From the IMG/VR virus record IMGVR_UViG_3300030376_006242: a stretch of 64,000 nt of DNA. The stretch is one strand, 5' to 3'. Both the position numbers and the translations under genes were made by a program. Each line of letters begins with the position of its first letter. Position 1 is the first letter of the stretch. This document shows, piece after piece, positions 2-33,911 of this stretch. The stretch is from a virus (lineage: Duplodnaviria > Caudoviricetes). The notes under the pieces were generated by a model that saw only the letters and a program-made list of their open reading frames with translations, was not told the DNA's origin and ran no database searches.

Positions 2-3000
2 TTCCCACGTATTGTTGGCAGGATTAATTTTGTAAGTTTCGTAATGAGAACCAACACCAAATTGTGCTTTCACTAAAGGTGTTTGTGGAGTGATTGGCAC
101 TATAGGTTGTTCCAAAGAACTGAAAAATGAATTGGTGTCTCTAACTTCATTTTGTACTTTTATGTCTCTTACAACAACACTTGTTGATATGTCGGAGCCT
201 GCGTTTGTGCTTACATTGGCACCAACGGCTACTTTCCACCATCCGCCTAAGTAGTTGTAATCTTCTGAATTTACTCTTGTGTAATCTCCCACTGGTTGTA
301 AATCTAAAAATAATGTTGCACTTGCTTCAAATACACCGCTCACATCTTTTAAGTATATCAATGACTTAGACGCAACTTTTCTTATGTACGCAACTGTTCC
401 TTCTGCTGTGCCTGTAATTACAGTTTGTCCAACTGCTGGGTCTACAAGTGTGTTAGAAATTTCTAATATTTCATCAATTTTTTCTTGAATTGGTACGTCT
501 GTTCCACTAAAGACATTGTCTTTTATAGTTGGACTTGAAACTCCTCCAAACGGTTGATTAGGTGCTTTAGAATAATTGCTTCTATCTAAAGGATATTCTG
601 AACTGAAATCTAAATAATTTAAAATTAATCTGTCGCCTATTTTAGTTGCTGAATATTGATCAGCAGATGCTCTAATTAGCAAGTGATCAGTTGTCTTGTT
701 TAAGAAAATACTGTCACCAATTAAAAGATTAGTTGTTTGAAAACCTACATTTTCTTTATAAAATGCACTTGAATCAAATGTTGAAAATAAGTCTTGTGCT
801 ACTGCCCCTTCTATTTGATTTACTGCTCTCCATAATTGTTGTTTGTATTGAACAATATTTCCAACATTGTAGTTTGAAGTTGGATTGAATACGCCTTTGT
901 ATTCTGTTTGAAGATTGTCGGCAGTAGGAGCACCTACTAACACAAATTTTCCATCTGGCGAAATATCTACTCCTTTACCAAAACTACTGTTAGGTCCAAA
1001 TATATCTAAGTTTATTAATGGATCAGTAGTTGGTGCTTCTATAATTTGTTTTAAAACTAATGTGCCACTTTCAAAACCTCTGTTGAAAACATATATCTTG
1101 CCATCACCATCTGTTGGTTGGCTTACCAACACTGTTGTGTTTTGTTTGTTAGCCGCAATTACTGTTCCAAAACTTGAATCTCCAGATTCTGTAGTTGTGC
1201 TTAATTCATTGTGTTTCTTGAAAACAAATTTGTTGTTTACAATTTTCCATGTGCCATCATCTGATTGATCAATCCAGAATTTTTCGTTGTCCTTCAATCC
1301 TTTGACATTTATAGTTGTGTTAATATCATTTATAGAACTTAATCTAGATTCAGTAAATCTTTTAATAATGCCCGTAGCAGGATCAATTGAAACAAATCCT
1401 TCTTTGTCTTCACATACAATAGATGTTAAATTCACAGAAGAACATTTTAATACATAATCTGTTCCATTCGCATTTACAACAAAAATTTCACCTGCCTGCA
1501 TATTAGCAGTTGTAAGTGTGTTTACAGTGATCGTGCTACCATCTTTAATCACAGATGTAATCTGTTGATCTGTGTTAGTATATTTCAAGACACTCCACGT
1601 TCCTTGATTGTTTCCAATCCATACATATTGATTTTCCTGTAATGTTGATAGACTTGACGTAGTTAATAAGTCATCATAATCTGCTAAAGTTAAAGTAATA
1701 TCAATTGGATGTACAGGACCTGCAGTTTTGATATATGTGTTTTGATCATACATAACAGGAAACGGTTTATGTGTGTAACCATTTGGAGCAATATATGTCT
1801 GTCCTGATTGTATTCTATAAACTAAATCTGTGGCAACAGGTTGATCATCAGTTAATAGAATAGGTTGTGGATTTAATCTTACTTTCGATTCATCCAGTTT
1901 GTATTCTATTTCGTCAAAAGTATCTACAGCACCATATTGACCTTTACGGATTGCCCACTCTTCAAAAAAGTCTAAACTTTCTTTATCAGCACTTGCTAGT
2001 GCATCAAACAATTTGTTCAAAGCATTTGCTGTGCCTTTTTCTCTTATAAATCCTTGATAAAATTTATACTGACTTACATCGTCGTTTATTATATTGCTCA
2101 AATACTGTCTTGGTTGATAACCAATTAAATGTTGAGCAAGTTTTTGTTGTTGTCTATCAAAATTATCTGTGTCTAAATCATAGAAGTCGCCAAATTGATT
2201 TGTTTGATAATCAAAGTTAGAAAGCAGATTGCTATCTGGCTTGCCATCTAATTTACGCCAATTATTACTATCAAATTCAGCAGTGCCTTTTAATTTTGAA
2301 TTTGCTGTATAATAAAACTGTTTGTGTTTTACTACATCACTCATTGCGTAGTCTGTGTATGGTTGCCAAGATTTTACTTTTGCTTCATCAAAAACAAAAC
2401 CTGGAATGTTTAAACTACCATCCCACTCTGTTAGGTAACCCAACATTTTAATTCTATCTTGTTTGTAACCACTTGCTGGGTCGTAAATTAAATCACTAAA
2501 TGCTGTTGTATTGTCAAGTAAACAAACGTGTTCTTTTTGAACTAGCGGCACTTTAGCAAAATATATTCCATTGATTGTATTTTTTGTTAACAATTCAAAT
2601 GTATTTGACTTACGTACAATTCTTAAATTGATTCTATCTAAAGTGTTTCCGTCTTCTTTCAATACTCCGTAAGAGTAACTGTTTTCTATCACATTGTCTG
2701 TTGTAGCAAATTTTGAATTTACAACTAATTTTTTGCTGGCTGGACTTAAACTTATTACAGCGCCTTCATCCCAGTTTTGTGTTGTCCAAAATAAAAACTC
2801 TTTAGCACTTAATTGCCAATTGGCAACCAATAAACTTTGTGAATCAAATTGGTCAAATTCAAAACCTTGTGATTTTAGATATGATTCGTAACCTAAAATT
2901 ATATCCACTACTGTTTGAATATTATCAATTACTGTGCCATAAGGAGCAGAAATAACTTTATCTGTTACAAAACTTTTTCTTAAAATTGCTGATGCTCCAC

Positions 3001-6000
3001 CTTCAGTAGGAAGTTCAACTATTTTTATAAATTTAGAACTGTCAAATGTTTCAGTTGATAAGTGTGTTTCATCTGTAGCATAAAAATTATCTTCATATTT
3101 TACATAAGAACCGCTATCATATCTTTTGTTTGCGTCCCATTTAACAAATGCGGCACTAACTCCACCTACATTTACTGTTGGATCACTGGCTTGTTCAAAT
3201 GGCATATGATATCTAATGTATGGATCATTTTTGTCATAACCTTTGATAGCAAAACCTGTTTGCTGTTTTTCTATGATTAAACCACTGTATGTTAAAATAT
3301 CTACTGGCGTAGAAACATTGTAAATCAGTTTGTAGTTTTCTTCTGGTACAAATAACGTTGATGAATTTAAAGGTGTTTTGCTATCCAATAATAATTTAAA
3401 TTTGTCTTTATTACTGAAGCCTCTTATTTTAAAACCAACCTGTGTTTGAATACCAGCAAATTGTTCTTTGTAATCTGTATAATTTGTAGTTTGTGAATCT
3501 TCCACTGTTTCATAAACGTAATTTAAAAGTCCTGATGTTAAAATTTCTGTTTCGTCATTTATACTGCTTGGCCACACAATATCAGTAGGTCTTACAGCAG
3601 TGGCTGAATTGTATACAATTTGACCACTAGCATTTCTGCCTACACGACTTGTATCTAAACCTATGCCTATTGCTTTACAAGGTTGGTGTAAAATGTAACT
3701 TTTTAAAAGAGCAAATGGATAATGAACACTTCTTCTCCATGTATTCTCTATTGGAGAGTGATCCCCAAATTTAAATTTTTGTTTTGTCAGTTGTAAAACT
3801 GCCCCTCTGGCATAAGCACTGTCAAATGGACTTCTTATGTTTCCTTCGCTGTCTACTGGTATATGACTTGCTAATCCTGGTCTTTTATAGTTTTCTTTTA
3901 CAACAATTTTTTTATTAGGCTCTCTCACAATACCTTTTTCAAGGTCTTGCCATAAAATTAAATTGTCTTTTGTGTAAGGTGCTGGCCCATACACTGATGA
4001 CCACCAACTAGGTTCAATTGTGTAACCCAACATCTCCCATGGAGTTATATTTGGTCTGTCAGTATCATAAGCATGATTATACACACCTCTCCAGAAACCT
4101 AATATATTTGTGTCATTAGGAGACACCATATTGCTGTAATTCCAAGTAAGACTGTTATCTTCTGCCCAATAAGTGTTTGCTGTGTAATCTTCGTTACCTA
4201 TAAATGTTAACCACTCGTTGAAATCTCCTAATAAAGTTTTGTTGATTGATTCTAAAGTGAATTTATTTTTTGAGTACGCTCTAGGAATAAATGATTTAAT
4301 TTCAAATAATTCTTCATCGTATGTACATTTAATATTGTTAAAAATTCTTTTTTCCATTTCTAAGATTACATCATCTCTGAAATCGTTAAAAGCAACCATA
4401 ACACTACCGTCATGACCTTGAAGCACATTTAATGGAGTTACTGCTGTTGTATCTAAATATTTCTTAGGAGCATATTTCGGATACAATCCTAGTTTTGTAG
4501 GAGTAGCAGGAATATGTGTTCCATTTGTTGTTTCAAATTCGTTTATTACTATTGTGTCATCAAGTGCCACAGTTTTTGTAATTTGTACAAAGCCATCTGA
4601 AAACACATAGTCAATATCATGTGTTAGTTGCGTACCATTGTGGTACACGTACACTGCTTTTGTAGACAATGTTGTTAAATTAAAACTAGATGATAAAGCA
4701 AAAAATTTATTATCTAAATCTAATATAGTATGTGTAGTTGTTTTAAAAGCACCTATACCCATCATGTCTGTTTTGAAGTAAGGTAAATTGTTGTTATTAT
4801 CTTTATTAATTTTACTTAAAATTTTATCAACAGTCTGGCTAGGCGTTCCATCAAAACCCAAGTCATCCATTGCTTTAATAAATGTTCTTTTGAATTTAAA
4901 ATAATCATACTGGCTAGTAGAAATAGAATTAATTAAATCAACTTGTCTGTTATCTAACAAGAATGATGCCAAAGGCATAGGGCCACTGTGTTGTAAAAAC
5001 TTTCTACCATATGCTGAAGCATTTGGAAAATCTCTTAGGTTGCTTACTCCTGGAGTTACACCTTCAATATCTACAAGTTCATTTGTTATTGATTTGACAT
5101 GGTCCGTAACTTGACCCACAGTAAATTTTGTTGTTTTAGCATTTAATGGATTAGACTGTAAATTTGTTGGGAATTCATAATGACCATTAGCATTTTTTGG
5201 TGTAGCACTGTTTGTTCTAATTACAACAACATCATCAACATTTAAGTCTTTTGTAAAATTAATATAAGCAATGCCATCTATTCTTAGAAAAGACCAATCT
5301 GTATTTTCAATCTTTTTAACATTGTTTACAAAAACATTTGCTGTTAAATCATTTAAGTCGCCACTTTGATTGTATACATCAATAGCGAAGTTATTCATTA
5401 GACTTGATGTAGCAACATACTGTCTATTAACTTTTTGAAAACTGTCTGTTGGTGCTTTTGTCCAACCGTTTACAGTTTTAAAATTTCCTGTGGCATCATA
5501 TTTTTTTAAAAATGCTGTTTCTGAGTTAAGAGTTCCACTTAAATTTTGTGACTGATATGTGTAATTTTCATTTAATAGATTAAAATCAAATACTATATCA
5601 CCTATATTTTCAACATTTGAATATGTTAAAGGAAAACCTAATTCTGTGTCTGCTGTTCCCGTGCCTTCAACATAAGTGAAAATTTTATTTCCTAAAAATG
5701 AACTATTAGGATACAATATTGAATCAGTGAAACTTACTCCATTGTCGTCAAATAAATCAAACAAAGGTGTCTGGTTGACTGCTGTTTTTTCTTGCCCTAC
5801 TTTCCAAGTAGTGCCTGTGTACCAATACCATTTACCTTGGTTCTTTTTTCCGTCTGTGGTTAAAACTGTATCACCTTCAACTGGTGAACCACCTGTAACT
5901 TCAACCAAACTGATTTGTTTAGTAGTGGTAGTTCCTTCTGTAAAATCAATAAATTTAACTTCAAAAATTTTGTCTTTTACTAATGGATCTGTATCAGCAG

Positions 6001-7441: not shown

Positions 7442-10400
7442 TAATATCCACTTCCTCCACTAGAGCCTCCGCTTGAACTTCCACTTGAACTTCCACTGGA
7501 ACTTGAACTTGAACTTCCGCTGTAACTTGGACTTGAACTTGAACTAGTAGGCAATGTGCCACTTAATGTGCTGGTTGTTGATGAACTTGTTGTTATGTTA
7601 CCATCTGCTTTTAATTTTGAGGCTGTTACAGCATCTATAATTTCAACATCAGAAACTTTTGCTCCGCTGATAAAAATTTCATCATTTTCAGATTTTACTT
7701 CAAATAAACTACCAAATGCTTTAGAACCTTCTTTAGGTACAATAACGAAAGTTGCTAGGTCAGGTGCTAATTCATTCATCACATATGTGCTTAATTCTGT
7801 AAAGTAGAAAGTATCTCCGAATTCCCAATTTTCTAAAGCAAAGAATTGATTGATTGCTGTTATAATTCTACTTTTCACATCACTATCGTTTGTGACTTGC
7901 TCTGTGTTTTTAACAATTTTAAATGTTGCTTGTAAACTTGTATCTGCTTGTGACCCAAATAATATTTTGTATTTTACTGGATGATACACTATTGTATCAC
8001 TTATTGATTTAATTTTTGCTAACGGAGTGTTAAAGTTTGTGTACAATGAATCATTGCTTGGTAACAATGGTTTCGTTGCTGTTACACCTGCCAACCACAA
8101 TCTAAAATTAATGTCATAAGTTCTTGTTAGTATGTACATATCAATTATATTAGATGAACTTGGGTCAAGTCTTGTGTTACCGTCCACTGTGTGTACATAT
8201 TGAAACTTAACTTTGTCTCTACCAACATGAGCAACATAATTGGTTACATCAGTTGTTGTGTTCGTTGTTGTATTAACTTGTTTGAAACTGTCGCTGTCTA
8301 TTAGATACACAATAGAACCATTTGGATAATCTCCAATAGCGCCTACAGACGTTTGTCTAGTGTAAATGAATTCTTCTGTAGCATCACAATATTGATATCT
8401 TTCTGTGCCATCTGTATTTTTCACAAGTTTTTGAAAAATGTATTTTGTTGATGCATTTGTGCTAGGATCAACAACAAGGTCAAAAGCATTTGGATTGTCA
8501 ACTATGCCGTCTTGGTCAGAATCAAATTGTGTTAATTCAATTTTAGCACTGTCAACATAACCGTTTTGTGTTCTGTATTCTGTTGAAATAGCAAAATTTA
8601 TATCATTGTTAAACGCATTATTGCTGTCTGGTTTTGTATTAATTGATAATACTGAAATTTTATCTTGAATTGTTGCTCCAGTTTTAGCATTGAAGTTTCT
8701 GTCAGCACTATCATAAAAGAATCTTACTTCTTTTTTACTTTCAAACACATAACGTAATCCTCTAAATGTAATTGTATATGTAGCACCATTGTTTACACAC
8801 TTGATTAACCAACTAGCATCTAATTGCTGATTTGATTCGTCACCTGTTTTACCAACACTGAAAGTGCCAAAAACATTTAAATTGTTTTCATCAATTACAT
8901 TCCATTTTCTAGTTTGAACATCGTAACGTATTCCAAAATTATTATAAGCAAAAGCCTGATCTATAATTAATGTTTTTACATCATCTGAAAATTGTTTTGA
9001 AAATTTAGGTAAAATTTCACTAGCAACAGCACTTGTAGGTATAACATCATTAAACTTAACAGCACCTTCGCCTGTGGATGTGTTTGACACTCCATCATTG
9101 AATACACTCACAACTGAAGTCCAAATATAGTCTTTAGCACCTGGGTGGTCACCTGGTCCTGCCATTAAACTATTGTCTGGCATAAAATGAAAACCAGTTG
9201 GTGCCACAAATTTTACCATAGCACCTGGCTCTATGTATTTTAATTGACTGGCTGTAAAAGAACCTACTTGATAATCAATAACATTTACAGCATCTATAAA
9301 TTTCCCTGTTGATTCATTTGTAGCATTTGTAACTTGTTGCCATACTGGAACAAAATCTGTTAAAATTACTTTTGGAAATTTTTCTATGTAAAAGTTTCTT
9401 GTTTGTTGTTTAGACAATAAAGGTTCCAATTGATTTACAATTACACCTTCTATATCAGTTTGTGTTGCAAAACTAAAAGTATCTAAATTTTCTGTTTCTT
9501 CTTTGTATATTACACCGTCTGCACCAAATACATTTGTGTTACTGTATTTGCCTGTAGCATCAATTAAATCATAATATCTTGATATTCCACTCGCAGTTCT
9601 ATTTGTTGCTTTTACTTTAATAATTTCTTGATTAGTTCCAAGTGGAGCAACATTATAATCTTCACCTGTAATCATTCTGTTTTGAGTATAATAAGTTGCA
9701 GGAGCATTCAATCTAATATTGTCGTTAGTTTCTGATGACGTTGCGTTGTCAACTGTGTATTGTAAACCAAGTGTAAATGTTAAAACTTCTACTTGGTTGT
9801 TACTTGATACATATTGAACATCTACTTGTATGTTCTGCATATCAGCAGGAGTAATTCTTATATTTTGATTTTTACTTCTTCTGTAATAAACTTTAAAATT
9901 ACCTTGCGGTAAATTTCCAAATATACCATCAGCAAACTTTAAACTGATTGAATCATCAGCACCACTTAATACTGTGTAAATATTTCTTATATTTTTTTCT
10001 GTTGAGTTGTATATCACGTTGTTACCAGTGACTGAATCAACTTTAGTCCACAATGTATCTTCTAATCCAGTGTCAGTATCAAGTGTGTATAACCAAACGT
10101 CAGTATTATTGATATTGCTAGATTCTATTGCTACTGATTGATTGTTTGAAGGAACATCTATGTTAAAATCACCATTATCAAGAACTCCTTGTCTAAAGTG
10201 TGCGAAAAATCCTGTGTTGTTACTACTAGCACCTTTGCCATCATCTCTATACAACATACTAAACTTTCTGCCTGTTAAAGGTGCTTCTTCAACAATAGCA
10301 CCATCGTTAAAAGATGTTGAAACAATTTCAAAAGGTAAATTTTGTCCATTTACAGTTTTGTCAAAAGCATAAACTGGAACATCTAAACTGTTAGCATTAA

Positions 10401-10965
10401 TTCTGTATTGATTAGTTGGAATAGCATCTATGTTTTCAGATTTCACTGGATTGCCAAACTTTTCATTTTCAGCCAATGAAGCATTTAAAATTTTTATAAA
10501 CTGTTCGTACCAATTAGTGTTACCTGAATCATTCCAAGTTACTGTTTGACCACTTAGGTTTAAGTTATTACTGTCTACAATATTTTCAGTTGTACTGATT
10601 CCTACTATTTTCAATAAACCATTTGCGGCTTGATTACGTGTTGGATTGTAACTGATCAGTCTTGCTAAACGCAAAATTGATTCTCTTCTGTCTGCTGTTT
10701 CTAAAAAATTTTCTCTAGCATTTAAATCTGTTCTGAATGCCAAATTTTGACCTAGGTAAGCAACCAAATCTATCAATGCTAGGTACTCTGAAGATTCAAT
10801 ATAATCATTGAAATCTTCTGGATAATTTTGTCTAATGTATTGAATCATTGTTCTACGGATAGTGTCAAAGTCGTAACTTTTAAATTCCGCATTTTTATAA
10901 GACTGGTATACTCTTTTCCAGTCTTCTGCCAACAATAATCTGTTTTGTCTATCTGTGGATGACAT
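7441..10965 (-). CDS. gp6: Baseplate wedge subunit (T4 gp6-like)
   Basis: N-terminal YDFDTIR...DFNDYIESSEYLALIDLVAY...NARENFLETA.RRESILRLARLISYNP, plus QNRMITGEDY, typical of the gp6 family. Adjacent to gp25. Confidence 0.9.
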   Translation of the reverse strand: MSSTDRQNRLLLAEDWKRVYQSYKNAEFKSYDFDTIRRTMIQYIRQNYPEDFNDYIESSEYLALIDLVAYLGQNLAFRTDLNARENFLETADRRESILRLARLISYNPTRNQAANGLLKIVGISTTENIVDSNNLNLSGQTVTWNDSGNTNWYEQFIKILNASLAENEKFGNPVKSENIDAIPTNQYRINANSLDVPVYAFDKTVNGQNLPFEIVSTSFNDGAIVEEAPLTGRKFSMLYRDDGKGASSNNTGFFAHFRQGVLDNGDFNIDVPSNNQSVAIESSNINNTDVWLYTLDTDTGLEDTLWTKVDSVTGNNVIYNSTEKNIRNIYTVLSGADDSISLKFADGIFGNLPQGNFKVYYRRSKNQNIRITPADMQNIQVDVQYVSSNNQVEVLTFTLGLQYTVDNATSSETNDNIRLNAPATYYTQNRMITGEDYNVAPLGTNQEIIKVKATNRTASGISRYYDLIDATGKYSNTNVFGADGVIYKEETENLDTFSFATQTDIEGVIVNQLEPLLSKQQTRNFYIEKFPKVILTDFVPVWQQVTNATNESTGKFIDAVNVIDYQVGSFTASQLKYIEPGAMVKFVAPTGFHFMPDNSLMAGPGDHPGAKDYIWTSVVSVFNDGVSNTSTGEGAVKFNDVIPTSAVASEILPKFSKQFSDDVKTLIIDQAFAYNNFGIRYDVQTRKWNVIDENNLNVFGTFSVGKTGDESNQQLDASWLIKCVNNGATYTITFRGLRYVFESKKEVRFFYDSADRNFNAKTGATIQDKISVLSINTKPDSNNAFNNDINFAISTEYRTQNGYVDSAKIELTQFDSDQDGIVDNPNAFDLVVDPSTNASTKYIFQKLVKNTDGTERYQYCDATEEFIYTRQTSVGAIGDYPNGSIVYLIDSDSFKQVNTTTNTTTDVTNYVAHVGRDKVKFQYVHTVDGNTRLDPSSSNIIDMYILTRTYDINFRLWLAGVTATKPLLPSNDSLYTNFNTPLAKIKSISDTIVYHPVKYKILFGSQADTSLQATFKIVKNTEQVTNDSDVKSRIITAINQFFALENWEFGDTFYFTELSTYVMNELAPDLATFVIVPKEGSKAFGSLFEVKSENDEIFISGAKVSDVEIIDAVTASKLKADGNITTSSSTTSTLSGTLPTSSSSSPSYSGSSSSSSSGSSSGSSSGGSSGGSGY
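7445..7550 (-). repeat. Low-complexity Ser/Gly-coding repeat at the gp6 C-terminus
   Basis: Tandem GAACTT / CTTGAACTTCCA units on the plus strand encode SSSSSPSYSGSSSSSSSGSSSGSSSGGSSGGSGY. Confidence 0.7.
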
Positions 10966-17894: not shown

Positions 17895-18914
17895 TTGTTC
17901 AAGAAATTAGCAGTTTTTACCGATATACATTTCGGATTAAAATCCAACTCTAAATTACACAACGATGATTGTGAAGAATTTGTAGATTGGTATATAGATT
18001 TAGCAAAGAAACATGGTTGTGAGACAGGACTCTTTTGTGGTGATTGGCATCACAACAGGAACAGTGTAAACATAACCACAATGGATGCTTCAATCAGATG
18101 TTTGGAAAAATTAGGAAAAGCATTTGATAATTTTTATTTTTTTCCAGGTAATCACGATTTGTATTACAAAGACAGCAGAGACATTCAATCCACAGAGTTT
18201 GGAAGATTTATTCCAGGCATCACAATGGTTAATAAAATTACAAAAATAGATGACACTATATTAGTGCCTTGGTTAATAGGCAATGAATGGAAAAAAGTTG
18301 GCAATATGGAATGCAAATATATGTTTGGTCATTTTGAACTGCCTAACTTCTTTATGAATGCTATGGTAGAAATGCCAGACACAGGAGAATTAAGACCAAG
18401 CGACTTTAAAAAACAAGAGTATGTTTTCTCTGGTCACTTTCATAAAAGACAAGTTAAAAATAATATTCATTACTTAGGTAATCCGTTTCCGCACAATTAC
18501 GCAGATGTTGATGATGATGAGCGTGGTATGATGATACTAGAACATGGCACAGAGCCTGTGTATTTCAATTGGGGCAACTGTCCTAAATATAGAAATGTAA
18601 AATTAAGCACATTGCTGGACAAAACAGATGAAATAATGAAAAGCAAAATGCATCTAAGAGTTACACTAGATATTGATATAAGTTTTGAAGAAGCAAGTTA
18701 TATCAAAGAGACTTTCATGAAAAAATATGATTGTAGAGAAATTACTTTAATTCCTAGCAAAAAAGAAGAAGAGATCAATACAGAACTAGACATAACCAAG
18801 TTTGAAAGTGTTGATCAAATTGTATCAAAAGAAATTGAAACAATCGAATCTGATGCATATGATAAATCTGTTTTGCTAAAAATATTTAGAGATCTAAACA
18901 ATGATACTGATTAA
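17895..18914 (+). CDS. gp47: Recombination endonuclease subunit (Mre11/SbcD-like), TTG start
   Basis: Metallophosphoesterase motifs DIHFG, GDW.H, GNHD, GHFE, SGHFH. AGGAG RBS upstream. Confidence 0.93.
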   Translation: MFKKLAVFTDIHFGLKSNSKLHNDDCEEFVDWYIDLAKKHGCETGLFCGDWHHNRNSVNITTMDASIRCLEKLGKAFDNFYFFPGNHDLYYKDSRDIQSTEFGRFIPGITMVNKITKIDDTILVPWLIGNEWKKVGNMECKYMFGHFELPNFFMNAMVEMPDTGELRPSDFKKQEYVFSGHFHKRQVKNNIHYLGNPFPHNYADVDDDERGMMILEHGTEPVYFNWGNCPKYRNVKLSTLLDKTDEIMKSKMHLRVTLDIDISFEEASYIKETFMKKYDCREITLIPSKKEEEINTELDITKFESVDQIVSKEIETIESDAYDKSVLLKIFRDLNNDTD

Positions 18915-20685
18915 AACACTTACGGTAAAAAATTTTATGAGTGTGGGTAATCAAACCCAGGCTATAGACTTTCAACAAAAACTGTTAACACTGGTACTAG
19001 GTGAAAACTTGGACATGGGCGGTGATGACGCAGGTTCACGTAATGGTACAGGTAAAACAACCATAGTCAACGCATTGTGTTACGCACTATATGGTGAAGC
19101 ACTAACAAAAATTCGTAAAGACAATCTTGTGAATAAAACCAACAGCAAATCAATGTTGGTCACAATAGCATTTGAAAAAGATGGAGTAAACTACAGAGTA
19201 GAACGTGGTAGAAAACCAAATGTAATGAAATATTACATTGACGAACAAGAACAAGAACTTTCAGATGTCAGTCAAGGAGATTCACGTAAAACACAAGAAG
19301 ACTTGAACAGAATGATTGGAATGAATCCAAAAATGTTTAAACACATTGTGGCACTCAACACATACACGCAACCTTTTTTAAGTTTACACAACAATGAACA
19401 ACAGGAAATAATTGAACAACTATTAGGAATTCAACTGTTGTCTGAGAAAGCAGACATCTTAAAGACACATATTAAACGTTCAAAAGAAGATATAGCACTT
19501 GAGACAGCAAGATTAGAAGGTTTAAAAATTAGTAATGAGAAAGTAGAAGAAACAATTCACAGTTTAACTAATAAAAGCAGTGCTTGGCACAATCAAAACA
19601 AAACAGATATTGAAAAATTAGAAAATAATTTAAAAGAATTACAAAGTGTAGACATTGATGCTGAATTAGAAGCACATCAAAAACTTGAAGATTGGACAAA
19701 ACTTAATGATGTATTAAGACAATTACAAAAAGATAGAGCAAGTTTGGAAAGCACAATAGAACAAGCAGACAAAACAGCAAAAAAATTACACAAAGATTTA
19801 GAAAAATTAAATCACAAAGCCACTTGTTATGCTTGTGGACAAGACTTACCGCAAGATAAAATTGAAGAAATGCAGAAAAAATTAGAAATGGAATATGGTG
19901 AATCCAACAGTTATGTAATGGAATTAAGTGAACAACTGGAACAAACAACAAAAGATATTGAAGCAGTTGGGGATTTGGATCAAAGACCAAACACTTATTA
20001 TGACACACTAAAAGAAGCATATGATCACAGACAGTATGTGGAATCAATCAACACAGCACTCAAAAACAAAAAAGAAGAAGCAAATCCATATCTAGATCAA
20101 ATAGATGAATTAAAGAATCAAGCAGTACAAGAAATAAATTGGGACACAGCAAACACTCTACAGAAACTGAAAGAGCACCAAGAGTTTTTATACAAACTGC
20201 TTACAAACAAAGATTCCTTCATAAGGAAAAAAATAATTGATCAAAACTTAACCTTCTTGAACAACAGGTTAACTCACTACTTGGATCAATTGGGTCTTCC
20301 ACACTTGGTCACATTTAAAAATGATTTAAGTGTGGAGATCACTCAACTGGGACAAGAACTAGATTTTGATAATTTAAGTAGAGGAGAACGTAACAGATTG
20401 ATATTAGGATTAAGTTTCGCATTTAGAGATGTATGGGAAAACTTGTATCAAAACATCAACTTGTTGTTCTTAGATGAATTAATAGATTCAGGAATGGATT
20501 CAGCAGGTGTAGAAAGCAGTTTGGCAATCTTGAAGAAAATGAGCAGAGAAGCAGGCAAAAATATATTCTTGATATCGCACAAAGATGAATTAATGGGACG
20601 TGTTAACAATGTGTTGAAAGTTGTGAAAGAGAACGGCTTTACAGCATATGCTAATGACGTGGAAACTTATGACCATTCAAGATGA
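18901..20685 (+). CDS. gp46: Recombination ATPase subunit (Rad50/SbcC-like)
   Basis: KNFMS.GN, Walker A NGTGKTT, coiled coil with zinc-hook CYAC, LSRGE signature, Walker B LLFLDE, ISH. Confidence 0.95.
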   Translation: MILIKTLTVKNFMSVGNQTQAIDFQQKLLTLVLGENLDMGGDDAGSRNGTGKTTIVNALCYALYGEALTKIRKDNLVNKTNSKSMLVTIAFEKDGVNYRVERGRKPNVMKYYIDEQEQELSDVSQGDSRKTQEDLNRMIGMNPKMFKHIVALNTYTQPFLSLHNNEQQEIIEQLLGIQLLSEKADILKTHIKRSKEDIALETARLEGLKISNEKVEETIHSLTNKSSAWHNQNKTDIEKLENNLKELQSVDIDAELEAHQKLEDWTKLNDVLRQLQKDRASLESTIEQADKTAKKLHKDLEKLNHKATCYACGQDLPQDKIEEMQKKLEMEYGESNSYVMELSEQLEQTTKDIEAVGDLDQRPNTYYDTLKEAYDHRQYVESINTALKNKKEEANPYLDQIDELKNQAVQEINWDTANTLQKLKEHQEFLYKLLTNKDSFIRKKIIDQNLTFLNNRLTHYLDQLGLPHLVTFKNDLSVEITQLGQELDFDNLSRGERNRLILGLSFAFRDVWENLYQNINLLFLDELIDSGMDSAGVESSLAILKKMSREAGKNIFLISHKDELMGRVNNVLKVVKENGFTAYANDVETYDHSR

Positions 20686-20887
20686 TACTCACGATAAACT
20701 GACCAAGGCGTACATGGCTTATTTCAAGGCAAACGAGTTGTTTGCTGAGAGGCGAAGCCTCGCTACCAAAGTAGCCGCTAGAAAGGCACTAGCGGAAATT
20801 AGAATTTTGGCACGTCAAAGACGTAAAGAACTTGAAGCACAATATAAAGTGTCCAAGATCCAAAAACAGCAAGAGCGGAAAAAATAA
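20669..20887 (+). CDS. Small basic helical protein, possibly Hc1/histone-H1-like DNA-binding
   Basis: ANELF...ARKALAEI..LARQRRKEL resembles phage Hc1-like proteins. Likely start is the ATG at 20669. Confidence 0.45.
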   Translation: MTIQDDTHDKLTKAYMAYFKANELFAERRSLATKVAARKALAEIRILARQRRKELEAQYKVSKIQKQQERKK

Positions 20888-20904
20888 TCAGTAAGTATGT
20901 CCAT

Positions 20905-21336
20905 ATGCCATGGACTTATCAAGGTAAAACAATAGACTCACTACCAGAAGACTGCGAAGGATTTGTGTATCTCATCACAAACACAACCAACGGTAAACGG
21001 TATGTGGGCAAAAAATTAGCAAAATTCAAGAAGACACGTCCGCCTCTCAAGGGCAGGATAAACAAACGTAGAAGCAAGGTTGAATCGGACTGGAAGGACT
21101 ATTGGGGTTCTTCAGATCATTTACTTGCTGACGTGGCACAATTAGGCGAAGACAAATTTACTAGGGAAATATTATACATCTGTAACACTAGAGGCGTAAT
21201 GAGTTATCTCGAGGCTCGAGAACAGTTCGAAAGGCGAGTATTAGAATCCGATGATTACTACAATGGCATTATCAATGTGAGAGTTGGTGGTTCCAAAATC
21301 CTTAAAGAAGAACTTAAAAATTACAACAAGGCTTAA
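20905..21336 (+). CDS. Stand-alone GIY-YIG (Seg-like) nuclease, catalytic domain only
   Basis: GFVY..TN..NGKRYVG, YWGSS, catalytic Glu (YLEA) and YYN. No C-terminal NUMOD/HTH domain. Confidence 0.85.
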   Translation: MPWTYQGKTIDSLPEDCEGFVYLITNTTNGKRYVGKKLAKFKKTRPPLKGRINKRRSKVESDWKDYWGSSDHLLADVAQLGEDKFTREILYICNTRGVMSYLEAREQFERRVLESDDYYNGIINVRVGGSKILKEELKNYNKA

Positions 21337-30110: not shown

Positions 30111-31199
30111 ATGTTAGAAGCACTGAAATCACTTTTTGAAAACAACGCAATTTCGGAAGAGATCAGAGCAGAAATCGAACAAGCATGGAACCAGAAGGTT
30201 GAAGAAAACAAACTTTCTGCCACTGCTGAACTTCGTTCAGAGTTTGCTGAGAAGTATGAACACGACAAAGCAACTTTAACAGACGCTGTTGACAAAATGG
30301 TATCTGAAAGAATAGAAGCAGAAATGGCAGAGTTCGCAGAAGACAAGAAGCAATTAGCAGAAGAAAAAGTTAAGTATGCTACTCAAATCCGTGAACACTC
30401 AGACAAATTAAAGTCGTTTGTTTTTGAACAACTTAAAGGTGAAGTTGCTGAATTACACGCAGACCAAAAAGTTATGGCAGAAAACTTCCAGAAACTTGAG
30501 GAATTCGTAGTTGATGCTCTATCTAAAGAAATCGCAGAGTTTCAAAAAGACAAACAAGACGTTGCTGAGACAAAAGTACGTCTTATCAGAGAAGCGAAGG
30601 CACATTTTGAAAAAGTTAGAAATAACTTTGTGAAAAAAGGTGCTAGTAAAGTGTCAGAAGTAGTGGGCAAAACTCTACAAAAAGAGATTAGTTCATTAAA
30701 AGATGACATTGAAGCGGCTCGCAAAAATGACTTTGGTCGCAGACTGTTTGAATCTTACGCACAAGAATACACACAATCATTCTTGAACGAAAAAGGTGAA
30801 ACAGCCAAACTTCTAAAAGTAGTGGACATGGCGAAACTACAGGCGGAAGAAGCGAAGAAGACAGCCGAAGAGAACAAAAAGCAGATTGAAGCAAAAGAAA
30901 AAGAAATTGTTACAATCAAAGAAGCGGCTGAGAGAGAAAAAGTAATCAATGAGTTAGTAACTCCATTGAACACTGAACAAAAAGAAATAATGAACAACTT
31001 ACTGGAGAGTGTGCAGACGGGTGCTTTACGAAAGCAATTCGAAAAGTACATTCCGTCCGTACTAAACGGTAGGACTCCAGCGAAAAAACAGGCTATAAAT
31101 GAAGGCACAGAAGTAACAGGCGATAAACAAACAAACATTGTAAACGGCAGTCAGTTCAACAGTAACATTGTTGACATTAGAAGACTGGCGGGTATATAA
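30111..31199 (+). CDS. gp22: Prohead core scaffolding protein
   Basis: Coiled-coil E/K-rich protein between gp21 and gp23. Confidence 0.8.
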   Translation: MLEALKSLFENNAISEEIRAEIEQAWNQKVEENKLSATAELRSEFAEKYEHDKATLTDAVDKMVSERIEAEMAEFAEDKKQLAEEKVKYATQIREHSDKLKSFVFEQLKGEVAELHADQKVMAENFQKLEEFVVDALSKEIAEFQKDKQDVAETKVRLIREAKAHFEKVRNNFVKKGASKVSEVVGKTLQKEISSLKDDIEAARKNDFGRRLFESYAQEYTQSFLNEKGETAKLLKVVDMAKLQAEEAKKTAEENKKQIEAKEKEIVTIKEAAEREKVINELVTPLNTEQKEIMNNLLESVQTGALRKQFEKYIPSVLNGRTPAKKQAINEGTEVTGDKQTNIVNGSQFNSNIVDIRRLAGI

Positions 31200-31215
31200 A
31201 AAGGAGAAAAAAACA

Positions 31216-32394
31216 ATGTCAGAACTAACAGAAACTCGCTGGCAGGACACAAAGAGTGCGTTATTAGAAGGCTTAACTGGAAATAAAAAAGCAGTTATGG
31301 CGGCTACTTTAGAAAATACGAAAGCGTATTTGGCTGAGGCGGCAACAGCAGGTGCTACATCGGCTGGTAACGTTGCTACTTTAAACAGAGTGATCCTACC
31401 GGTGATCAGAAGGGTTATGCCTACTGTGATCGCTAACGAATTGGTTGGAGTTCAACCAATGACTGGCCCAGTTGGTCAAATCCACACATTAAGAGTAAGA
31501 TACGCAGAGACAAACAACGCGACTGGTACAGCAAATGATGTAACAGCAGGCGATGAGGCTCTATCTCCGTTCAAAATAGGTCAAGCCTATTCAGGTGACG
31601 GCACAGGTGGTCTTGGTGACGCGACAGCGGCTAAAGAGGGTACTGGTGGTAGAGCAATGTCAATCCAAATCTTGAAACAAACGGTTGAAGCAAAATCACG
31701 TAAGTTACAAGCAAGATGGACATTTGAATCTGCTCAAGATGCTCAAGCACAACAAGGTATTGATGTAGAGGCTGAAATCATGGCGGCATTAGCACAAGAA
31801 ATTACTGCTGAAATCGACCAAGAGATCATCACTTCATTAAGAACTTTAGCAGGTGCTCAATCATCTGGAACATACAACCAAGCGGCAGTATCAGGTACGG
31901 CAACATTCGTAGGTGATGAACACGCGGCTTTGGCTGTTGTTATAAACAGAGCGGCGAACAAAATCGCACAAAACACAAGACGTGGTGCTGGTAATTTTGC
32001 AGTGGTTTCACCATTAGCATTAACAGTACTTCAGTCAGCAACAACTTCAGCGTTCGCAAGAACAACTGAAGGAACGTTTGAAGCACCAACTAACCAAAAA
32101 ATGGTTGGAACTTTAAACAGTGCGATGAAAATCTACGTAGATACATATGCGGCTGATGATACAGACGTATTAGTAGGTTACAAAGGTTCATCAGAAGCAG
32201 ATGCGGCGGCATTCTATTGCCCATACATTCCGTTAATGTCTTCTGGTGTTGTACTTGATCCAGGTACGTTTGAACCAGTTGTTTCTTTCATGACTAGATA
32301 TGGTTATGTTGAGTTAAACAATACTGCTTCATCACTAGGTAACGCGGCAGATTACGTTGAGACTATTGGTGTGTCTAACACATCTTTCAGTTAA
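31216..32394 (+). CDS. gp23: Major capsid protein
   Basis: RR.MP..IA.E.VGVQPMTGP.G.I, VEAKSRKL.A.WT.E.AQD, EI.AEID.EII, FYCPYIPL, FMTRYG. ATG at 31216 follows an AGGAG RBS. Confidence 0.97.
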   Translation: MSELTETRWQDTKSALLEGLTGNKKAVMAATLENTKAYLAEAATAGATSAGNVATLNRVILPVIRRVMPTVIANELVGVQPMTGPVGQIHTLRVRYAETNNATGTANDVTAGDEALSPFKIGQAYSGDGTGGLGDATAAKEGTGGRAMSIQILKQTVEAKSRKLQARWTFESAQDAQAQQGIDVEAEIMAALAQEITAEIDQEIITSLRTLAGAQSSGTYNQAAVSGTATFVGDEHAALAVVINRAANKIAQNTRRGAGNFAVVSPLALTVLQSATTSAFARTTEGTFEAPTNQKMVGTLNSAMKIYVDTYAADDTDVLVGYKGSSEADAAAFYCPYIPLMSSGVVLDPGTFEPVVSFMTRYGYVELNNTASSLGNAADYVETIGVSNTSFS

Positions 32395-32417
32395 TCCGTA
32401 ACTTGAACGATATATTG

Positions 32418-32441
32418 AAGGGGGCTTCGGCCCCCTTTTTT
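32418..32441 (+). terminator. Rho-independent terminator after the capsid gene
   Basis: AAGGGGGC-TTCG-GCCCCCTT followed by a T-run. Confidence 0.9.
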
Positions 32442-32460
32442 ATTGACTTTTTTATCAGAC

Positions 32461-32489
32461 TTGACAGATTAACCAAAATCTGTTATAAT
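32461..32489 (+). promoter_or_regulatory. Sigma70-type promoter with extended -10
   Basis: TTGACA-17 nt-TATAAT, with TG upstream of the -10. Confidence 0.85.
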
Positions 32490-32517
32490 TATTACGAAAA
32501 CTCTAACAAGGAAACAA

Positions 32518-32724
32518 ATGAAAAAAATAGCATTAATATTAGCAACGTTGTTCATAGTATCTGCTTGTTCAATTCCAAAAAATCCAAAAGTTTCTTTTGG
32601 AAAAAAATGTATGGTAAAAGACGAAAGTGTCAGTTACTCTTACGTTTGGTTATATGATAAGAACACAGGCTTACCTGCATCAGCAGAACAGTGTGAAGCA
32701 CTACCTAACGCAAAAGGCAAATAA
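32518..32724 (+). CDS. Small lipoprotein
   Basis: MKK + hydrophobic stretch + lipobox VSAC. Confidence 0.75.
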   Translation: MKKIALILATLFIVSACSIPKNPKVSFGKKCMVKDESVSYSYVWLYDKNTGLPASAEQCEALPNAKGK

Positions 32725-32729
32725 ACTTC

Positions 32730-33530
32730 ATGGACCTAATTCAGCCATTGTTTTTGAACCAATCAGGTAGAACAGAAACGGCTGAATTAGGCGTAGCCAA
32801 TAGTAGTTGGTCACAAACTTTTATCTTTGATGTAATTCAAAAAGACATAGACAAAGGTGTAGACAGTTTCTTACTGTTTATTAAACCAGAAGAAAAAACA
32901 TGGACTCCTGATTGGAACTACCAAGCAGAGATGGTAGCCAAAATTAAAAAACAATTTCCAAAAATACAATTGATTGTAGATGTTTGTTTGTGTTCTACTT
33001 TGCCAGATGGTCATTGTAGAGTGATGGACAAACCAGACACCAGTGAAGCACTGTTAATCAACTTGGGTAAGAAATTAGAATCAGCAGGTGCAGACATATT
33101 GGCTCCATCAGACATGGGAGACAACACAGTGCAAAATTTAAAAGCAGAAACAGACTGTGAAGTAATGGCGTATGTAAAATATAGAAGTGTGTTTTACAGT
33201 TCATTTAGAAATTTAGCAGACAGCACACCAACAACTGAAAGAACATATCAGTTGCCTATCAATGGTGATTCAGGAATGATTGCCACAGCAAATAAATTTA
33301 GAAGTCAAAAAGCAGATTATCTCCTACTTAAACCAGCACAGCACAGTTTGAATGATTTAGGCATGATATCCATCAGTACATATAATCCAGTAGGATTGTA
33401 TCAAGTGAGTGATGAATATCTAGGATTGCCCACTGTAGAGCATCAAATAGAAATTGCTAAAGTGTATCGCAAAGCAGGTGCTAAATTTTTAGTCACATAC
33501 GGAGCAAGAGATATAATTGGGAAAATTTAA
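32730..33530 (+). CDS. hemB: Porphobilinogen synthase (ALA dehydratase), N-terminal arm missing
   Basis: DVCLC-x7-C zinc triad, AGADILAPSDM, Y.KY, FYSSFR, RTYQL, ADYLLLKPA, YQVS.EY, AGA...VTY.A. Confidence 0.88.
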   Translation: MDLIQPLFLNQSGRTETAELGVANSSWSQTFIFDVIQKDIDKGVDSFLLFIKPEEKTWTPDWNYQAEMVAKIKKQFPKIQLIVDVCLCSTLPDGHCRVMDKPDTSEALLINLGKKLESAGADILAPSDMGDNTVQNLKAETDCEVMAYVKYRSVFYSSFRNLADSTPTTERTYQLPINGDSGMIATANKFRSQKADYLLLKPAQHSLNDLGMISISTYNPVGLYQVSDEYLGLPTVEHQIEIAKVYRKAGAKFLVTYGARDIIGKI

Positions 33531-33802
33531 TGGAACACGAAAAGATACTGATAGAATTTAAAGAATACATGGATAGACTTCAAATATGGAAGAAAAATCA
33601 TGGTATATTCATCAATGACATAAAGAAACTGGAAAACTCAATGAATAAAATGTATGATGAATACACTAATATTTTAGTTGATTACCGTAGAACCAAAAAA
33701 GACAGATACCTAGAAGAAGCCAATAAAGTGCTGTTAGAAGCAATAAATCTAGCAAAAAAATTCTCAAAAGTAGAACTATTGGCATCACTCAGCAAACGAT
33801 AA
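33530..33802 (+). CDS. Hypothetical helical protein
   Basis: 90-aa ORF, translationally coupled to hemB. Confidence 0.6.
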   Translation: MEHEKILIEFKEYMDRLQIWKKNHGIFINDIKKLENSMNKMYDEYTNILVDYRRTKKDRYLEEANKVLLEAINLAKKFSKVELLASLSKR

Positions 33803-33808
33803 ATACCT

Positions 33809-33905
33809 TTAGTTCAAACGAACTTTGGCATAATGTCAAAGTCTTATGCAGTAATAACCCACTGCGTACCGGATAGAACCCGGATTGGACTTCTAAAATA
33901 GGAGA
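33809..33905 (+). promoter_or_regulatory. Structured 5' leader downstream of a late promoter (TAAATA 33800-33805)
   Basis: Three-way junction plus a possible pseudoknot ending just before the AGGAG RBS. Confidence 0.5.
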
Positions 33906-33911
33906 AAACAA

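Follow-up and report, generated by a model that had tools for sequence, protein, structure and literature searches.

An arm-less member of the porphobilinogen synthase family encoded by a T4-like marine phage and other aquatic viruses

Background

Porphobilinogen synthase (PBGS, also called ALAD), the product of hemB, is a textbook case of an enzyme regulated by oligomer switching, in which an N-terminal arm of about 25-35 residues, wrapped around a neighbouring barrel, together with Mg2+ (or arginine) at the interface of arm and barrel decides between the active octamer and a hexamer of low activity. Here we describe a hemB gene whose product lacks this arm. It was found at 32730-33530 on the plus strand of a 64,000-nt stretch of DNA (hereafter the window) from the IMG/VR virus record IMGVR_UViG_3300030376_006242, which belongs to a giant T4-like phage, marine and uncultured. 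The record is 134 kb long in all, of which the window is a part, and its completeness is estimated by CheckV as 37%.

In cellular PBGS, the activity is governed by an oligomer equilibrium that depends on arm-barrel contacts, with the allosteric Mg located at the arm-barrel interface (PMC7729013), and a ligand for this allosteric Mg2+ is present in about 90% of PBGS (PMC535902). There is a precedent for activity without the octamer, namely the PBGS of Rhodobacter capsulatus, for which substantial activity was reported in the smallest oligomer (PMC535902). As for viruses, a precedent is given by a viral 5-aminolevulinate (ALA) synthase, which was shown to be active (Wegner et al. 2024, PMC11480375). 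The literature that we searched, with incomplete coverage, yielded no report of a phage PBGS, and neither the arm-less architecture nor its restriction to viruses nor its place in phage tetrapyrrole gene sets was found there.

On the evidence given below, we consider it likely that the gene encodes an active, constitutive and zinc-dependent viral PBGS, which serves the phage as an auxiliary metabolic gene.

Results

Family membership and predicted fold

The 266-aa open reading frame (ORF) at 32730-33530 had first been noticed in a sequence-only reading of the window, which suggested a profile search and a structure prediction as checks. The ORF was confirmed, and its product matches the Pfam family ALAD (PF00490) with 135.1 bits (E 4e-39) over positions 26-314 of the 317 in the profile, far above the curated cut-off of 24.6 bits, while a search of all six frames gave 139 bits for hemB. 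The first 25 profile positions are left unmatched. By sequence, the closest match among solved structures is that of E. coli HemB (1b4e, E 1e-17), and the identity to cellular, arm-bearing ALAD proteins is 24-38%. The label 'porphobilinogen synthase' has already been given to these proteins by the Joint Genome Institute (JGI), and the identity of the gene as PBGS is therefore not new.

The AlphaFold2 (AF2) monomer model, built on an alignment of 40 sequences, has a predicted local distance difference test (pLDDT) score of 93.1 and a predicted template modelling (pTM) score of 0.92, and opens with β-strand 1 at residues 2-10. The model is confident and shows a (β/α)8 barrel that can be superposed on experimental PBGS structures. 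Ten or more solved PBGS were matched by Foldseek, and against the enzymes of seven species (Toxoplasma, E. coli, human, yeast, Pseudomonas, Pyrobaculum and Chlorobium) the query-normalised template modelling (TM) score is 0.86-0.90 with a root-mean-square deviation of 2.3-3.1 Å, the value of 0.90 being obtained with 3obk, 1b4e and 5hms. By profile, fold and catalytic residues, the phage protein is thus a member of the ALAD/PBGS family.

Conservation of the active-site residues

Both Schiff-base lysine motifs and the zinc triad are intact, just as the sequence-only reading had claimed. K150 (nt 33177-33179, within VKY) and K201 (nt 33330-33332, within LLKPA) align with K195 and K247 of E. coli HemB, and the triad C86, C88 and C96 (nt 32985-33017, pattern C-x-C-x7-C) aligns together with D84 with the E. 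coli zinc site D118, C120, C122 and C130. Likewise, R160, R171 and Q174 align with E. coli R205, R216 and Q220. The two lysines are those which bind the A-side and the P-side ALA as Schiff bases. The E. coli numbers given here are those of the literature, which equal the chain index plus one (119, 121, 129, 194 and 246 in the chain for the Cys triad and the lysines).

To judge how strictly these positions are kept, the comparison can be extended to 45 distinct viral sequences, a set which diverges to 36% identity with the catalytic residues still kept. Invariant throughout are D84, C86, C88, C96, S127, D128, K150, R160, R171, Y173, Q174, K201, E229, Y257 and R260. The binders of the substrate carboxylates are included, namely R160, R171, Q174 and Y257, and to these S227 can be added, which is Ser in 44 of the 45. 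The earlier reading also regarded the EGAD motif as degenerate. The phage protein does have QKAD at this place, but E. coli HemB has QGAD there, so that QKAD cannot count as degenerate in function, and the argument drawn from it has to be given up.

Loss of the arm and of the presumed Mg ligand

The absence of the N-terminal arm, which was the central claim of the sequence-only reading, is borne out by the start of the profile match at position 26, by the first strand of the model at residue 2, and by the lack of any upstream start. The hemB frame is closed by a TAA at 32706-32708, no ATG, GTG or TTG occurs from there to the ATG at 32730, and the lipoprotein ORF upstream lies in another frame; for these reasons no upstream start can restore the arm, and a supply of the arm from upstream sequence is ruled out. 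In 71 database representatives, the arm is 24-35 residues long (~29 in E. coli) and carries a motif of R-x-R-R-L-R type before the L-I-x-P-x-F strand.

E. coli HemB has 324 aa; in comparison, these ~29 N-terminal residues are missing from the phage protein, which has further lost a 6-residue loop ('daagfk'), ~9-12 residues (loop or helix) after S-G-E-Y, and a few single residues. The lid over the active site has nearly its normal length, being 1-2 residues shorter than in E. coli. We had also considered a 'shortened lid', which is ruled out as the large alignment gaps appear only relative to the sequences P0041-P0044.

The ligand of the allosteric Mg we take to be the Glu ten residues before the Asp of GAD, that is, E232 in E. 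coli and E245 in Pseudomonas aeruginosa. The position aligned with this presumed Glu is T186 in the phage protein, and in the 45 viral sequences it is T, S, R, I, M, H or L and never Glu or Asp. The phage protein thus lacks the arm and, judged from the alignments, the presumed allosteric-Mg ligand, both of which are the rule in cellular PBGS without belonging to the catalytic apparatus.

One clade at 76-86% identity (L003-L017 and relatives) shows a different upstream situation, in that 36 codons without a stop precede hemB in its own frame, across the off-frame lipoprotein gene (e.g. L003:5893-6000), giving an alternative ORF of 302 aa. The 36-codon stretch contains no arm motif, and the JGI call there is 266 aa; the extension is probably a chance open frame.

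An arm-less family confined so far to viruses

A search of 5.8 billion proteins found 40 relatives, almost complete in length (263-278 aa) and with 42-93% identity, the arm-bearing proteins appearing only at 31-36% identity. Scans of IMG/VR gave 72 viral loci at 36-100% identity, from marine and freshwater samples, and the arm is absent in 72 of 72: the proteins start with M-x-LIQPIF or, in the freshwater clade, 11-13 residues before it. Taken as a family, these arm-less ALAD proteins are 263-284 aa long, and an exhaustive representative search placed the short form in about seven clusters at 50% identity.

The gene is under purifying selection. The pairwise ratio of nonsynonymous to synonymous substitution rates (dN/dS) by the Nei-Gojobori method has a median of 0.20, with values of 0.03-0.25 in close pairs. 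In a maximum-likelihood (ML) tree, a branch with support 100/96 separates 24 arm-less or short-N sequences from 50 arm-bearing representatives. The tree is unrooted and its 'cell' group is defined solely by possession of the arm. A single arm loss would suffice to explain it, and one origin of the short form is possible.

A search of 185,579 species genomes was also examined for the short form. Of its 80 best hits, 77 have an arm of 24-35 residues, two show 5 and 7 residues, and one checked protein is arm-less. The last is encoded at 73-873 of a 9-kb contig (L145, CAYVBV010000075.1) that was binned into a metagenome-assembled genome (MAG) of an uncultured Polynucleobacter sp. and also carries a 402-aa ALA synthase at 2906-4114. 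This contig is collinear with the viral locus L073 and is probably phage DNA within the MAG, in which case the binning would offer a weak hint at the host of that freshwater phage type. Within the best 80 genome hits, the short form is so far virus-specific. The nearest arm-bearing genome relatives, at 35-37% identity, come from alphaproteobacterial MAGs, Vicinamibacterales, Leptospira, Bdellovibrionales and Devosiaceae, and no cellular donor can be named from them.

In the INPHARED collection no short form was found, only full-length host-like hemB in doubtful 'phage' records, and a megablast search with the hemB region matched only jumbo-phage capsid-gene fragments. A 332-aa NCBI protein (P0032) follows the phage HemB for its first ~165 residues and is unrelated in the remainder, probably because of a frameshift or a chimeric gene prediction.

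Linkage to other tetrapyrrole genes

In phages of other types, the short hemB is found in the company of further tetrapyrrole genes. At 8564-11372 of L071, the order is orotidine monophosphate (OMP) decarboxylase, HemF (the oxygen-dependent coproporphyrinogen oxidase; PF01218, 1e-78), hemB and haem oxygenase (PF01126, 6e-17). In L082, HemF is followed by hemB (9213-10819), and an ALA synthase (TIGR01821, 581 bits) lies 30 kb away. In L073, 2 kb separate hemB from an ALA synthase gene (558 bits, cut-off 338), and in the Polynucleobacter-binned contig the two are again on one contig, with 558 bits against the same cut-off of 338. The short HemB proteins of L071, L073 and L082 are nested inside the viral clade of the ML tree. 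The phage-borne HemF of L071 and L082 has no mention in the paper on viral tetrapyrrole genes (PMC11480375).

In the window itself, a 189-aa ORF at 21722-22291 on the minus strand bears a weak and unproven likeness to uroporphyrinogen-III synthase (HemD). It scores 19.7 bits with Pfam HEM4, below the cut-off of 27.5, and E 0.0096 with NCBIfam; the AF2 model is of low confidence (pLDDT 43), and there is no PDB profile match. A language-model search of the Atlas returned at rank 12 a cluster of 183-aa proteins with HEM4 on 72% of its members (score 0.92), which we take as a lead only. The ORF is conserved at 59-100% identity in relatives. As a second tetrapyrrole gene of this phage it is not established, given the sub-threshold HEM4 score, the pLDDT of 43 and the missing PDB match.

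The hemB cassette and its genomic setting

The gene is encoded on bona fide phage DNA, among the hallmark genes for the major capsid protein gp23 (31168-32394, plus strand; PF07068, E 5e-99), the portal protein (25765-27489), the prohead protease (29477-30100) and a gp25-like protein, those for gp23, portal and protease being T4-type head genes. The set further includes genes for Rad50/Mre11-like proteins and a SegE GIY-YIG nuclease. The longest gp23 ORF begins at a TTG and overlaps the preceding gene by 32 nt (31168-31215); a likelier start is the internal ATG at ~31216 (MSELTETRW...). In the region 17895-21336, a Mre11/Rad50-like pair of the gp47/gp46 type is followed by the SegE-type GIY-YIG homing endonuclease at 20905-21336 (PF19835, E 6e-36).

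Behind gp23 there is, on the plus strand, a hairpin GGGGGC-TTCG-GCCCCC with a T-run, which resembles an intrinsic terminator (32417-32438) and is kept identical in relatives, and then a sigma-70-type promoter TTGACA-17-TATAAT with a TG extension (32461-32489), which agrees with the consensus in 12 of 12 positions. The first gene of the cassette is an ORF for a predicted lipoprotein of 68 aa at 32518-32724 (plus strand; beginning MKKIALILATLFIVSAC), with a signal peptide and the lipobox IVSAC; it is in a frame other than that of hemB and ends 5 nt before the hemB ATG. It has no Pfam or PHROG family, is kept at 63-88% identity in marine relatives, and is absent from the freshwater clade. The ATG of the following gene, orf90 (33530-33802, plus strand), overlaps the hemB stop as TAATG. 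This gene encodes a small helical protein without any match in profile searches of Pfam, PHROG and NCBIfam, and it is always downstream of hemB in the T4-like relatives. We considered whether its product might provide the arm in trans or be a partner of HemB, an idea which is weakened by an orf90-like gene that follows gp23 without hemB in L322 and L323; nor does orf90 stand beside hemB in L071, L073 and L082, and it is probably not a HemB partner.

Gene order is fixed across ~65 related contigs and runs protease - orf362 - gp23 - (lipoprotein) - hemB - orf90 - orf152 - orf337, with gp23 at 78-93% and hemB at 38-98% identity. On the other hand, 47 of 48 further gp23 relatives (76-88% identity and enough downstream sequence) have no hemB in the slot from gp23 to orf152/orf337. 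They carry other cargo there, such as a radical S-adenosylmethionine (SAM)/SPASM enzyme (L307:4790-5857) or an S-adenosylmethionine (AdoMet) decarboxylase (L331:4312-4680), and hemB is therefore regarded as an accessory cassette in a cargo hot spot. In the window, the slot comprises 32395-33911, and from comparison with L254-L332 it is hypervariable in this phage group.

Nearly all the T4-like relatives have a promoter agreeing in 10-12 of 12 positions upstream of the cassette, with or without the lipoprotein gene, whereas the neighbouring structural genes have TAAATA late-type boxes instead of a sigma-70 promoter. From these motifs we infer that the cassette is transcribed early by the host polymerase, and the hairpin would insulate it from late read-through. 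In a clade at 52% identity (L057-L066), TTGACT-17-TATAAT stands directly before hemB and the -10 box ends 6 nt before the ATG (e.g. L059:9960-10000), so that the hemB mRNA may be leaderless there.

Discussion

In our proposal, the phage HemB would condense two molecules of ALA into porphobilinogen by a catalytic TIM barrel alone, which keeps the Schiff-base lysines, the Cys3 zinc site, the Arg/Gln of the lid and the Ser/Tyr of the P-site, and which has lost the ~29-residue arm as well as the presumed allosteric-Mg Glu at the arm-barrel interface. With both of these lost, neither the canonical arm-dependent octamer nor a switch between octamer and hexamer would be expected. The gene would probably be transcribed by the host RNA polymerase from its own sigma-70 promoter, together with the lipoprotein gene and insulated by the terminator. 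During infection the flux of ALA into tetrapyrroles (haem, corrins) may then be kept or raised independently of the control by the host, and in phages that also carry haem oxygenase, bilins may be a further end product. The sequence-only reading had likewise suggested a minimal enzyme, perhaps free of regulation, by which the tetrapyrrole flux is boosted. Such an enzyme fits the catalytic conservation, the selection, the barrel model, the loss of the Mg Glu, the promoter and the gene linkage, while the missing regulation and the boosted flux keep the status of a probable interpretation.

Several points weigh against an active and constitutive enzyme. The phage HemB scores 119 bits with the NCBIfam equivalog model PRK09283 and does not reach its cut-off of 297, which makes it a very divergent member of the family. 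The canonical SGEY motif is SDEY in most marine members. The lid closure that secures a low Michaelis constant (Km) depends on contacts present only in the octamer (Jaffe 2020, PMC7729013), and for this reason an arm-less barrel might be a poor enzyme. As to expression, a match to the promoter consensus is no proof of early transcription. Finally, searches of the 134 kb of this phage and of four large relatives, in records of 23-37% completeness, gave no ALA synthase, HemC, HemE, HemF, ferrochelatase or haem oxygenase.

Some of these facts would also suit a protein of new function, in which the Schiff-base chemistry is kept but is applied to another substrate pair or leads to another pyrrole or aminoketone product. 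ALAD paralogues in secondary-metabolite clusters may act on other substrates, and the phage proteins are highly divergent, not only by the equivalog score but also with at most 38% identity to any arm-bearing ALAD; the change of SGEY to SDEY is consistent in the family and the loops are trimmed. However, the residues known to bind both ALA and zinc are all invariant, and in other phages hemB is adjacent to the gene for ALA synthase, the source of the canonical substrate, and to those for HemF and haem oxygenase, which makes a new function unlikely in our view. It is still less probable that the protein acts on the host PBGS, forming mixed oligomers or capping the assembly so that the host enzyme is shifted to an active or inactive state, with its own catalysis being secondary. 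This was put forward by the sequence-only reading as a subunit that remodels host oligomers, and since PBGS activity is set by an oligomer equilibrium that depends on arm-barrel contacts (PMC7729013), an arm-less subunit would in principle disturb such assemblies. We found no positive support for it, and the strict catalytic conservation speaks the other way, because a poison or capping subunit needs no 15 invariant catalytic and substrate-binding residues over such deep divergence. Moreover, with 30-38% identity to any cellular PBGS, conserved interfaces are doubtful, and the same protein is found in phages of differing types and habitats, presumably with differing hosts.

The location in a variable cargo slot, which differs between related phages, and the absence of the first ~29 codons of the cellular genes might suggest a decaying and functionless remnant of a captured host hemB that was truncated at its 5'-end upon insertion. 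Yet no complete locus has a broken reading frame, dN/dS is ~0.2, the fold is predicted by AF2 with confidence, and the start point is unchanged at identities between 98% and 36%, in both the marine and the freshwater clades and on unrelated phage backbones. Through these data on selection and conservation, the remnant reading is effectively excluded.

We therefore return to an active, constitutive PBGS as the reading that we favour. A bolder form of it would hold that the protein has full PBGS competence when monomeric or simply dimeric, and that this minimal constitutive form evolved once in phages and spread among unrelated large phages; on this extension we are nearly evenly divided and lean slightly to doubt. 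If it were true, the family would be a natural dissection of the 'morpheein' model of regulation and would stand in contrast to cellular PBGS, which is thought to depend on octamer assembly mediated by the arm; it would also supply the missing second step of a phage-borne route from ALA to tetrapyrroles that bypasses the control by the host. In any case, a natural and selected family that lacks exactly these parts and keeps the catalytic residues gives a direct experimental handle on the role of the arm. Besides, phage hemB adds a second pathway step to the published viral set of ALA synthase, haem oxygenase and bilin reductase, and points to tetrapyrrole supply as a recurrent target of large aquatic phages.

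Comparison with known systems

The closest described enzymes are the Zn-dependent PBGS of cells, represented by those of E. coli (1b4e, 1i8j), human (1e51, 5hms) and Toxoplasma gondii (3obk), with which the phage form shares the TIM barrel, the zinc site, the lysines, the Arg/Arg/Gln of the lid and the Ser/Tyr of the P-site. It differs from them in having no arm and no acidic residue at the Mg position, in the two loop deletions, in an identity of only 24-38%, and in being encoded by viruses. The metal-independent hexameric PBGS of R. capsulatus (PMC535902) is also without the determinants of allosteric Mg, and its smaller oligomers remain substantially active; that enzyme has the arm and lacks the zinc site, while the phage HemB is the reverse, with a zinc site and no arm.

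With respect to viral systems, the nearest one is the set of vAlaS, hemO and pcyA/pcyX (PMC11480375), which are likewise tetrapyrrole genes borne by aquatic phages. Like that set, the arm-less hemB occurs with a bona fide alaS on three other contigs, and next to hemO in one. Unlike it, the lineage described here has hemB without alaS or hemO in its 134-kb record (37% complete), and the paper on vAlaS makes no mention of hemB or PBGS, which is the next step of the pathway. A parallel may nevertheless be drawn on regulation, for the published vAlaS was proposed to have lost its haem-binding site, a regulatory feature (PMC11480375), much as the phage HemB has lost the arm.

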